In this document: in pieces, positions 38,730 to 55,608 of the stretch | Numbering within the stretch: position 1 is the stretch's first letter | Layout: each line of letters begins with the position of its first letter | From: Eledone cirrhosa | Lineage: Eukaryota | DNA length: 64,000 nucleotides | Reading direction: 5' to 3' | Assembly (NCBI GenBank): GCA_964016885.1 | Contig: OZ024743.1 | Location: 199,702,001-199,766,000, forward strand | Program-made: the position numbers and the translations under genes | The notes under the pieces: model-generated | Seen by the model: only the letters and a program-made list of their open reading frames with translations | Databases searched by the model: none | What the model was told of the DNA's origin: nothing

Positions 38730-39147
38730 GTAGGAGGTGAGTTTTATTGTAGTACAATAAAGCAATGCAGATATCGGATAAGAAGCACTCTACAGTTTGT
38801 GGGACTGGAGTATGCATAATATAAGATCAAAAGATGGTTAAAGGAGTTCAATATATTTTATTATGCGCATTTCAAAAACAAACATCATCAAACAATAATA
38901 TTTGTGTTTTCATCAGATAAAACAGGAGAACATGATATGAAGGCTAAAAAAAACACTTGTTGATAGTGCAGTTTTAAATCAACATATGTTGATTTAAAAC
39001 TGCACTATCAACAAGTGTTTTTTTTAGCCTTCATATCATGTTCTCCTGTTTTATCTGATGAAAACACAAATATTATTGTTTGATGATGTTTGTTTTTGAA
39101 ATGCGCATAATAAAATATATTGAACTCCTTTAACCATCTTTTGATCT

Positions 39148-39155
<8 letters not shown>
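38730..39155 (-). mobile_element. ORF-less fold-back derivative of the PLE at 52937-55577
   Basis: Tail 38730-38815 and arms 38816-38985 / 38986-39155 almost identical to 52937-53193 and 55405-55577; centre AACATATGTT. Confidence 0.93.
39049..39115 (+). ncRNA. Minimal type I hammerhead ribozyme (mirror copy in the left arm)
   Basis: TTTTAT-CTGATGA-AAACAC...GTTTTT-GAAA-TGCGCA-TA-ATAAAA. Confidence 0.85.
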
Positions 39156-39183
<28 letters not shown>

Positions 39184-39517
39184 GTCTGTGGTGCGTGAGT
39201 GTGTGCGTTTATGAATGTCTATGTATGTGCGTGTGCATATGTGTATATGTGTATGCGTGTTTATGTGATAGAGGGAGAGAGAGAATAAAAGAAATGTGTG
39301 TATTTATATCTATATAATCTCACAAAAGTCTGTTAAGTATAGTATTGTGTTGTATTGAGAGAGGAACATATAATTCTAATGCATTGTAAAATAATATCTT
39401 TCTTGCCTTTGTGACAAATAAAGAATAACTTTAGTATATTTATCTATGTCGTTGCTGCTGTTATCAACGTCACCGTTGTTGGCGCTCTTGTTCTTGTTGT
39501 TTTCTTGCTATCGTTGC

Positions 39518-39550
<33 letters not shown>

Positions 39551-39559
39551 TGCTGCTGC

Positions 39560-39596
<37 letters not shown>

Positions 39597-39843
39597 CTTC
39601 TTCTTCTTCTTATTATTATTATTATTATTGAATGCCATGGTTGACGGAGACTCGGCTCTGTAAGGTATAGTAATTTTTAACCGTTAAAACAATTGTAAAT
39701 TGTTTAAAACTTGAACCAAATTGTTGATAAAGACACCCTCCTCCTCGTGAGAGGGGTCTTTCTGCCCGTTATTTGGCCCTTCGGGGTTAAATAACCAGTT
39801 ATTGGGGTTTTGTACCCAATATTCATTTTAAACAAAAAACAAC

Positions 39844-52596: not shown

Positions 52597-52720
52597 CATA
52601 TATACACACACACATGCACACACACACATCTCTCTCACTCTCCCTCCCTCTCTCTATATATAGGAGATCTTAACGGTTCAAGTTTTTCCTGGATAGTCAA
52701 TATTTATAAAACAAAGTTTG

Positions 52721-52781
52721 TATTTTATCTGATGAGACCGTACCAAAGTTTTGGTACCCTTTAAATATATATAATAGAATA
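52721..52781 (+). ncRNA. Degenerate hammerhead (G12 mutated) in an orphan pLTR-like piece, 52662-52918
   Basis: TATTTTAT-CTGATGA-GACC GTACCAAA GT TTTGGTAC CCTT-TAAA-TATATA-TA-ATAGAATA. Confidence 0.6.
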
Positions 52782-53218
52782 AATATGATTTTATAAATAT
52801 AATTTCTATTTATTAATATCATTGATATTATACCCCAGAAAACTTGTCGGGTGCTTCGAATGAGTTATAAATATATATATTTGTTGAATTACCAACAAAT
52901 TAAATATCCCTTTTGCTTATATATATATATATATATGTAGGAGGTGAGTTTTATTGTAGTACAATAAAGCAATGCAGATATCGGATAAGAAGCACTCTAC
53001 AGTTTGTGGGACTGGAGTATGCATAATATAAGATCAAAAGATGGTTAAAGGAGTTCAATATATTTTATTATGCGCATTTCAAAAACAAACATCATCAAAC
53101 AATAATATTTGTGTTTTCATCAGATAAAACAGGAGAACATGATATGAAGGCTAAAAAAACACTTGTTGATAGTGCAGTTTTAAATCAACATATGAAAAGT
53201 GGTTTTAGATTGATGTGT

Positions 53219-54259
53219 AATAAAAACATCTTTGATGCTAACGCCAATTACTATAATAACGCACTTTCTAAAGCCGGCTATCCAGATAAAATCAAATATA
53301 ATAAAGAAACAAATTCTAGGAAAACTTACAGTAGAATATTTAATCATAACCATTCCAATAATTTTAATAAAAGACCTAGATACAAAAACATAATCTGGTA
53401 TAATGCTCCTTTCTCCATCTCTATTAATAACAATATTCCTAAATTATTTTTTAGTGCCTTAAATAAATGCTTCCCTCCCTCACATATCTATAGTAAAATA
53501 TTTAACAAACACACCATCAAATTTTCGTATTCTACATCCTCCAATATTTCCAACATCATCTCTAAACACAACAACAAAATATTAAATACTAAATCTCTTC
53601 CTTCCAATATTGAATTTCATAATAACAGTAATAGTACTCCTGACGTCATTGTAAACCCTAGGCTAACTTCTGTAAACCCAAATGCAACGTCAAACACAAC
53701 TTCGCTAAATGTTCATAATCCAACTCTAAATCAAGAAACTATTATTCCTATTATTCCTATCGCAAACAACTTCTCCAATCCAATTCCTTCTATAGATAAC
53801 ACTAGATCACTCATTAATAATCTCTCTAATTGCAACTGCCGCATTAAAAATAAATGTCCTCTCAACAACCATTGCCTCGATAAAAACTTAATTTATGAAT
53901 GTAAAATTATAACTAGCACCAATTCCTTCACCTATTTTGGCTCCACTTCCACCTCTTTTAAAGCTCGTCTCTATAATCATCATTCATCTTTCAAATACAA
54001 ACTTAAAAGAACTAACACTGCTCTCTCAGAACTCATATGGTCCTTAAAAGACAAAAACATTAAATATAACATCTTTTGGAAAAAGATTTCTTCTGCATCC
54101 TCATACTTGAACAGCTCTCTATCTAAAATCTGTAATCTCTGCCTAAATGAAAAATTTACCATTATCTCTAACCTAGAATCCATAATAAATAGACGCTCAG
54201 ATTTGTTTTCTATCTGCCTGCATAAATTCCATAGAACTTTTCACAAAGTATACAGTTAA
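53219..54259 (+). pseudogene. PLE ORF C-terminal half: RT thumb/linker, CxC zinc motif, GIY-YIG endonuclease
   Basis: IIWYNAPFS...KIFNKHTIKFSYS; CNCRIKNKCPLNNHCL; LIYEC...TYFGST...FKARLYNH; CNLCLNEK...INRRSD...CLH; open frame but RT core missing. Confidence 0.9.
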
Positions 54260-54316
54260 TATTCAATTCTTTATCAATTTAGAATCTTTTCTCAAAGGCA
54301 CATATACATACACCTC

Positions 54317-54760
54317 TTTAAAATATACCCATCTACCTTACTTTAAAGGGCATTATACACTCTATAATACTCGTTTACTCATTACCCTCATTCTATCTTC
54401 TCGTAAAACAATAACATTTGTTTTTGACATTTTGAATATTCATCCGCAATCATTATTATTTTTTCTCTCTATCATAAATCTTTTTAATCTCAATTTCATC
54501 CTTAATTTATTATTATATTTTTTTTTTTTTTTTTCTTAATATATACTCATATATTCTTTAAAATATACCCATCTACCTTACTTTAAAGGGCATTATACAC
54601 TCTATAATACTCGTTTACTCATTACCCTCATTCTATCTCCTCGTAAAACAATAACATTTGTTTTTGACATTTTGAGTATTCATCCGCAATCATTATTATT
54701 TTTTCTCTCTATCATAAATCTTTTTAATCTCAATTTCATCCTTAATTTATTATTATTTTT
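54317..54760 (+). repeat. About 240-bp-period direct duplication in the PLE 3'UTR; second, diverged pair at about 54950-55100 / 55185-55320
   Basis: CTTTAAAATATACCCATCTACC...TTATTATT present twice. Confidence 0.9.
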
Positions 54761-55570
54761 TTCTCCCCATCAACGAACTCATTATTAATACATATGAATT
54801 CAATATACAAACTTTAACTTCACATTATTTTTCTCAAATCCTTCTACACATAAACTTTTTCTCTTTGCTAATTTTAAAATTCCTACATTTCTTCTTTTGA
54901 CGTTAGAATATTCACCCACAATTATTATTTTTTTCTCTCTATCTTCATACATAATTTCCCTTCGTTAATTTTCAAATTCCTTTAATTTATACATTATCTT
55001 CCAACGGTTCCCAACCTCTCTATATTAAAACATTATATCTTTTTCTCAGTTATAAAAACTATCTCTTTCTCTCTATCACCCATCTCTCCCTTTCCACCTT
55101 CACTCTCATCTCCTCCCCTTTTTTTCATCCTTTCCAACCCCCCCCCCCTCCCTAAATATAATATATTTTTTCCTCGCACATATCCTCCCTTCGTTAATTT
55201 TCAAAATTTTTAATTTATACAGTATCTTCCAACGGTTTTCAACCCCTCTATATAAAATATATCTCCTCTCAGTTATAAAAACTATCTCTTTCTCTCTATC
55301 ACCCATCTCTCCCTCTCATCTCCTTCCCTTTTCATCCTTTTCTCTCCCCCCCCTCTCTAAATAAAATATTTTTCCCAATATCACACATCAATCTAAAACC
55401 ACTTTTCATATGTTGATTTAAAACTGCACTATCAACAAGTGTTTTTTTAGCCTTCATATCATGTTCTCCTGTTTTATCTGATGAAAACACAAATATTATT
55501 GCTTGATGATGTTTGTTTTTGAAATGCGCATAATAAAATATATTGAACTCCTTTAACCATCTTTTGATCT

Positions 55571-55608
<38 letters not shown>

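Follow-up and report, generated by a model that had tools for sequence, protein, structure and literature searches.

Insertions with an inverted pseudo-long terminal repeat (pLTR), a tail on one side only and palindromes at the junction have been described for endonuclease-bearing (EN+) Penelope-like elements (PLEs) of Adineta vaga (PMC3846280) and in the legend to figure 2 of Craig et al. (PMC8557442), a paper which, where it treats them, calls the origin of inverted, tailed PLE insertions unresolved. The PLE protein of an anole, as described in the sections of PMC11167929 compared here, cuts and extends both strands, starts reverse transcription at two internal sites that bound the tail, and is predicted to be a dimer. 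Here we consider a 64,000-nucleotide stretch of the Eledone cirrhosa genome (GenBank assembly GCA_964016885.1, contig OZ024743.1, positions 199,702,001 to 199,766,000 of the forward strand; hereafter the window) which contains two insertions of one such family, a mini-element at 38730-39155 without an open reading frame (ORF) and a long element at 52937-55578. In the mini-element, two copies of the start of a Hydra-clade PLE, 256 and 170 bases long, stand head to head within (TA)n. We think it probable that it arose from two complementary DNAs (cDNAs) which were primed from both sides of a cut in (TA)n, ran off the capped 5' end of the element RNA and were joined via ATAT.

The mini-element is 426 bp long and consists of an 86-nt unpaired tail followed by a perfect palindrome. 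A sequence-only reading of the window had taken it to be a 425-bp palindrome; the hairpin is real, but only 38816-39155 is palindromic, with two arms of 170 nt, no mismatches and no spacer. As that reading had placed it, the fold-back lies at CATATG: the centre falls between 38985 and 38986, and the parental context of the site, TTTTCATATGTTG, is located at 55403-55415. Numbering throughout takes the A of CATATG, probably the capped RNA start, as +1 of the element. The parts are:

38730-38815, minus strand: 86-nt tail, +171 to +256 of the element RNA, antisense on the plus strand
38816-38987, minus strand: tailed pLTR arm, +170 back to +1
38983-38988, no strand: CATATG junction, with ATAT at 38984-38987 common to both arms
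38984-39155, plus strand: untailed pLTR arm from +1 to about +170, whose end, TTATATTAT, abuts (TA)n

The outer end of the tail is likely to mark the first initiation site of reverse transcriptase (RT), and in five places among the fetched loci the tail extends further, into internal 5' sequence that precedes the ORF. Read antisense, the tail (38730-38750 and, in the long element, 52937-52957) also carries a consensus-like splice donor, AG/GTGAGT, which could matter for intronic insertions.

By blast within the window, the mini-element is 99.6% identical to 52938-53194 and 98.9% identical to 55407-55579, from which it differs by a T-tract of 8 rather than 7 and one substitution. Tail and pLTR are thus essentially those of the long element, and the ORF-less hairpin is tied to a PLE family through both ends of a family member, as the sequence-only reading had proposed. 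Since the match stops at the element boundaries and both insertions are surrounded by (TA)n, the mini-element is not a segmental duplicate.

The same layout recurs throughout the 3.0-Gb genome, for which copy numbers were obtained from exact sequence patterns. A 34-nt tail pattern has 9,984 matches, the pLTR-end pattern of a young subfamily has 1,753, and the exact CATATG fold-back junction is present at 563 loci. Our junction sample was drawn from the first-listed places on contig C1 that match the tail and pLTR-end patterns (all but one, matched by eye), together with 15 exact-junction loci. Once merged, the fetched loci formed 144 regions, which with the window contain 129 head-to-head junctions; arms without a head-to-head partner were excluded, and the omission of 7 junctions from loci chosen only for their palindrome and of the 2 window junctions left 120. 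Their arms end at -2 to +1 in 92 of 240 cases, and 58 of the 120 junctions involve +1. Exact palindromes account for just 15; in a further 19 both arms reach +1 without forming one and in 24 one arm does, so that 43 of the 58 are not exact palindromes. The remaining junctions have both ends downstream (15), both upstream (33) or are mixed (14). The +1 position is therefore a stop site for arms regardless of whether a palindrome forms and, because arms pile up there mostly without a palindromic join, the palindrome is secondary. Tailed-arm ends are somewhat more numerous in +140 to +225 than in +61 to +139 (16 against 10), a pile-up where the other arm starts that is too weak to use.

This distribution bears on the alternative that the hairpins form by snap-back, in which a single cDNA (or, as PMC3846280 suggests in its treatment of these junctions, an antisense template) folds at a short palindrome and copies itself, with micro-palindromes setting the breakpoints as the sequence-only reading had it. 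Spacer-free perfect palindromes do exist, at the 563 loci, some junction inserts copy nearby sequence, private variants are common to both arms, and other parental palindromes yield some exact fold-backs, with sample cases at TATTAATA and TCGA. The natural parent unit contains 64-67 palindromes of 6 bp or more, however, and those we followed are seldom used. Two further CATATG sites yield no fold-backs anywhere in the genome, one in the ORF, whose half-site occurs 28 times in the sample compared with 68 for the +1 site, and one in the 3' untranslated region (UTR), a weak control with a rare half-site (4); only the ORF site is therefore a fair comparison. A 10-bp palindrome at -40 gives 5 exact fold-backs genome-wide and an 8-bp palindrome in the hammerhead loop gives 27. 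Breakpoints are thus strongly non-random, as had been anticipated, but they pile up at +1 rather than at palindromes generally. The related proposal of microhomology joining at self-complementary sites stands in its first part, in that insert-free junctions away from +1 overlap by at least 2 nt in 25 of 34 cases against 19% by chance; palindromes as the main cause do not (0, 0, 5 and 27 fold-backs against 563). Inserts are present at 28 of the 62 junctions away from +1, some copied from nearby sequence. Joining there looks like microhomology end joining, which palindromes help a little.

The bases next to the +1 ends point to a capped sense template. The parental base before +1 is C. Genome-wide, G precedes A(+1) in 2,329 arms and A or T in 2,417, compared with 4,493 instances of the uninterrupted parent, and 248 loci fall in a CATAT-G-ATATG class in which a single G separates two +1 ends. 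At gapped junctions, G stands beside 19 of 32 +1 ends and 12 of 73 other ends (Fisher p=2e-5); it is seen on 10 of 14 tailed and 9 of 18 untailed arms, and on both arms in 2 loci. An extra G before +1 is what copying of an mRNA cap would be expected to leave, and an untemplated 5' G has been linked to cap reverse transcription for L1 in the relevant part of PMC9341517. Penelope itself is described as having an internal TATA-less promoter (PMC2377424, promoter sections). We infer that +1 is probably a capped RNA polymerase II start, with C/A resembling an initiator, and that the extra G is templated by the cap. The presence of the extra G on both arms likewise fits a capped sense template better than snap-back. 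Short-read contigs over 55300-55577, which are of a kind that cannot show RNA ends, contain no site where many molecules begin.

The arrangement of the two arms is equally informative. Exactly one tailed and one untailed arm are found at 111 of the 120 junctions. The untailed arm extends further 5' in 47 of these and the tailed arm in 15 (p=6e-5), while in 49 the two end within 10 nt of each other. As a fold-back copy must nest in the first arm, and the tail can belong only to a first strand primed there, snap-back of a single cDNA is excluded wherever the untailed arm is the longer, including the long element of the window. Both arms are oriented like first-strand cDNAs growing inward from the flanks, and a head-to-head product is therefore what would be expected from priming both cut ends on sense RNA. 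Taken with the palindrome counts and the extra G, these observations leave snap-back unlikely for the mini-element and largely refuted as a general cause.

The two arms of one insertion share a source. Among 60 insertions that passed an anchor filter, the mean distance between the two arms is 0.8 differences; for the nearest other arm it is 1.3 and for the median one 5.2, and 18 private substitutions are on both arms against 30 on one arm. Likewise, in 9 of 9 long hairpins each arm resembles its partner more than it does the other hairpins compared. Where both arms are long, they end within 200 nt of each other in 14 of 25 pairs (permutation mean 4.1, p=1e-4), mostly at non-palindromic sites and with arms of up to 3 kb; a common broken RNA end would explain these near-equal ends. 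A giant hairpin of the family (L051:948-7253) has arms of about 3.0 kb that are 99.9% identical, with a frameshift near the end of the ORF in one arm.

These observations can be accommodated by the following scheme. The endonuclease would cut both strands within (TA)n, and RT would start internally at +256 and at about +170, at AU-rich sites which could pair with the (TA)n ends. Both cDNAs would copy sense RNA to its capped 5' end at +1, sometimes adding a cap-templated G. The exact palindrome would require only that two cDNAs with ATAT at their ends anneal over these 4 nt, with no need for the parental C, and the other junctions would be made by microhomology end joining with templated inserts. 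Short strong-stop hairpins such as 38730-39155 would result where RT initiates on the 5' pLTR copy, and long truncated arms such as 52937-55578 where it initiates on the 3' read-through copy. We are less sure that both cDNAs derive from one RNA molecule held by the dimer. More tentatively still, and with slightly more doubt than belief, we propose that PLEs integrate by a distinct double-priming route in which a dimeric RT-endonuclease uses one capped RNA for priming from both cut ends, at two positions separated by 86 nt, and links the cDNA 3' ends to each other. If true, this single route would account for the tail and the inverted pLTR as well as for the junction palindromes and for hairpins whose arms reach 3 kb, and the stubs, which number in the thousands, would allow PLE transcription starts to be located by DNA sequence alone.

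Several points weigh against joining of two run-off cDNAs. The 19 of 32 ends with G is an inflated fraction, because C at that position was scored as parental and so excluded by construction; a looser count gives 28 of 62, of which 5 are ambiguous in that the G can be read as the parental base of the other arm. About half of the non-parental +1 ends carry A or T rather than G, and the start at +1 is deduced solely from DNA copies. The similarity of the arms might reflect a single source locus, or gene conversion, and not one RNA molecule, and the long symmetric arms could have arisen when larger palindromes collapsed later. In vitro, RT start sites were the same on both strands in the assays of PMC11167929 compared here, and the strict rule of one tail per insertion is not yet explained biochemically. 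The exact CATATG join, taken alone, fits ATAT annealing, fold-back or deletion alike. Finally, the sample consists of first-listed matches on contig C1 and is enriched for the young subfamily.

Deletion could act after insertion, either between the CATATG copies that form direct repeats within the inverted arms of long elements, or by later trimming of centres. Removing 53195-55412 from the long element would leave exactly the mini-element layout, and a collapse of this type could account for near-symmetric long arms. The 10-bp palindrome at -40 is also in both arms of long copies, however, and gives only the 5 fold-backs mentioned above; the extra G and the many one-sided +1 ends are impossible by deletion; and the T-tract is 8/8 in the mini-element but 7/7 in the neighbouring long element. 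We regard collapse as unlikely, and as somewhat less probable than snap-back.

An identical junction at high copy number, together with the retention of the RT start sites and the hammerhead motif, might also indicate that the hairpin is a self-propagating non-autonomous family, like a miniature inverted-repeat transposable element or a retrozyme, that descends from one junction event. Such a family should form its own lineage, but on a rough, low-resolution pLTR tree the exact-palindrome copies are unclustered (8 changes, compared with 8.7 when shuffled), and junction variants are many. The copies match different coding subfamilies and have pLTRs identical to those of long copies. The lack of clustering and the different subfamilies imply that the junction was remade repeatedly, and an RNA starting at +1 could not carry it. 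We consider this explanation marginally less probable again than collapse, although mini-elements may still be copied as templates if the junction forms anew on every occasion. Long-read sequencing is known to produce perfect palindromes artefactually, yet fold-back reads in the assembly, or a segmental duplication, are a very improbable source of the mini-element given its one-sided tail, the distinct flanks, the varied junctions and older copies with differing arms, to which short-read contigs of another data type that contain the pLTR, with summed depth rising across +1, add weakly and possibly come from the same sample.

The preferred origin from two joined cDNAs would also cover the long element, which the sequence-only reading had called the coding parent of the mini-element and which is instead its dead sibling. 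Its inverted tailed arm meets the sense body with an overlap of 1 nt; the body starts about 2.0 kb upstream of CATATG, a 5' truncation within the RT thumb that leaves no RT core. The 410-codon open frame is a chimera: its first 64 or so codons are antisense pLTR, and the genuine end of the ORF follows. Its parts are:

52937-53218, minus strand: inverted tailed arm, comprising tail and pLTR, to -25
53219-54259, plus strand: 5'-truncated ORF with RT thumb, linker with N-rich insert, CxCx5C and C-terminal GIY-YIG-like endonuclease
54260-55407, plus strand: 3' UTR with two internal tandem duplications (54315-54522/54555-54762 and 54949-55168/55178-55373)
55408-55578, plus strand: untailed 3' pLTR from +1, with CATATG at 55407-55412

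The insert in the RT-endonuclease linker (53600-53820) is rich in N, S and T, about 70 amino acids long and missing from 12 aligned homologues; it recalls the Asn-rich inserts reported in a part of PMC3846280. Just left of the long element, an AT-rich piece at 52670-52915 contains a short stem and TTTTATCTGATGA, which corresponds to the 5' half of a hammerhead core; the piece is possibly the stub of another family.

Judged by motifs and (TA)n targets against the published description of the Hydra clade (PMC8557442, section 11), the mini-element and the long element belong to a Hydra-clade PLE family. Like the C-terminal EN+ PLEs described there, the family has a single ORF with RT followed by a GIY-YIG-like endonuclease, and its pLTR is evident from a partial tandem, an inverted 5' arm and a one-sided tail. 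It shares with that clade DKT in place of DKG (SDKTNNLY), the RW motif, the CxCx5C linker, the absence of CCHH, CxxC and CxH around E and N, a candidate hammerhead motif, and (TA)n, which is found on both sides of 98 of 111 two-arm insertions; several of the others are complex copies in which the end called by the script falls inside the element. It departs from the same description in a unit of about 3.7 kb rather than generally under 3 kb, in the N-rich linker insert, and in RWT (RLRWTAYF) where RWK is usual, as it is in most homologues. One locus (L088) has an ORF of 799 amino acids from the first in-frame ATG, with FDI, YRDD and FLDV, and another (L145) combines a full unit of about 3.68 kb with a partial tandem and an inverted arm. 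The family protein has 18 homologues at 29-38% identity, and the endonuclease residues Y26, Y39, G41, R50, H54 and E111 are invariant across 14 sequences. Pfam searches gave no RT or GIY-YIG match and a PDB sequence search no significant match; an Atlas match (0.95) to a cluster with 11% GIY-YIG members offers a lead for the endonuclease assignment.

Both insertions carry candidate hammerhead motifs, whose CUGAUGA, stem II, GAAA, tgcgca loop, UA cut site and ttttat/ataaaa stem I were identified by eye:

39049-39115, plus strand: minimal type I hammerhead motif in the mini-element, predicted cut after 39109
38856-38922, minus strand: mirror motif in the tailed arm, which follows from the perfect palindrome
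55472-55538, plus strand: motif in the 3' pLTR of the long element, read by eye

A motif scan over the window missed the motif, the 150 Rfam matches listed, out of 258, do not include it, and the monomer fold is unremarkable (z about -1.1 and -1.2, not significant). Hammerhead cleavage is at best a possible source of arm ends: just 5 of 240 fall at +120 to +126, and the 27 fold-backs on the loop palindrome lie just upstream.

The window is dense in hairpin and inverted-arm insertions. Two hairpin-type elements at 13846-14203 and 14677-15506 have outward-facing hammerhead cores and no blast match to this PLE family; the former has a 6-nt spacer ending in G. At 16584-18891, inverted arms of 98% identity both contain hammerhead cores, and a short frame at 18088-18456 (minus strand) resembles the C-terminus of a PLE endonuclease; the element probably represents a truncated PLE of a second family. 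Other inverted arms or near-perfect hairpins are at 11808-12151, 15506-15785, 23871-24838, 30868-31233, 34197-34318 and 38245-38360, several adjoining (TA)n. Two similar tandem copies of a non-LTR (long terminal repeat) retrotransposon, at 40568-45223 and 46100-51308, show by eye a frame resembling ORF1, along with endonuclease and RT frames that are frameshifted.

With junctions in the thousands, this one family provides a readout that separates antisense self-priming from double priming on capped sense RNA, and it supplies exact sites (+1, about +170 and +256) for work in vitro. The family also scatters thousands of near-perfect palindromes over a 3-Gb genome, for which effects through double-stranded RNA, RNA editing or stability are speculation.

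Two better-known processes offer partial parallels. In L1 twin priming, two primers act on one RNA and different segments become inverted; the use of two primers is alike, whereas both arms here cover the same segment. Synthesis of retroviral minus-strand strong-stop DNA runs off a capped 5' end and so yields a short cDNA, as proposed here; that DNA is primed by tRNA and transferred, while the product here would be target-primed and integrated. The Anolis Poseidon element PAc in vitro, as reported in PMC11167929, shares internal RT initiation at two tail boundaries, AT-rich targets, and cutting and extension of both strands; it is of a different clade, and inverted arms, cap run-off and the linking of one cDNA to another are not discussed in the sections compared. 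Non-LTR retrozymes (10.64898/2026.07.22.740005, in the portion compared) are likewise non-coding, hammerhead-bearing and derived from a PLE pLTR, but they are head-to-tail tandems; the mini-element was rejected as a retrozyme, as the hairpins here are dispersed head-to-head pairs with outward-facing motifs and no head-to-tail tandem hammerhead units. In the openly available main texts on PLE structure, priming, promoters and cap G, we found no report that inverted PLE junctions carry a cap G or strong-stop cDNA. Similar in layout are the EN+ PLEs of Adineta vaga and of Craig et al., in the parts of PMC3846280 and PMC8557442 concerned, which have the same head-to-head arms, tail at one end and palindromic junctions. 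Compared with Adineta vaga, the tail here is 86 nt rather than 30-40 and ORF-less hairpins are a major class; PMC3846280, where it discusses the palindromes, attributes them to an antisense template that primes itself; our junctions instead favour a capped sense RNA on which priming took place twice. The layout of the insertion, with its inverted pLTR, one-sided tail and junction palindromes, is thus already described and ordinary in kind, and the part for which we found no precedent in those texts is the evidence for a cap at the junctions.

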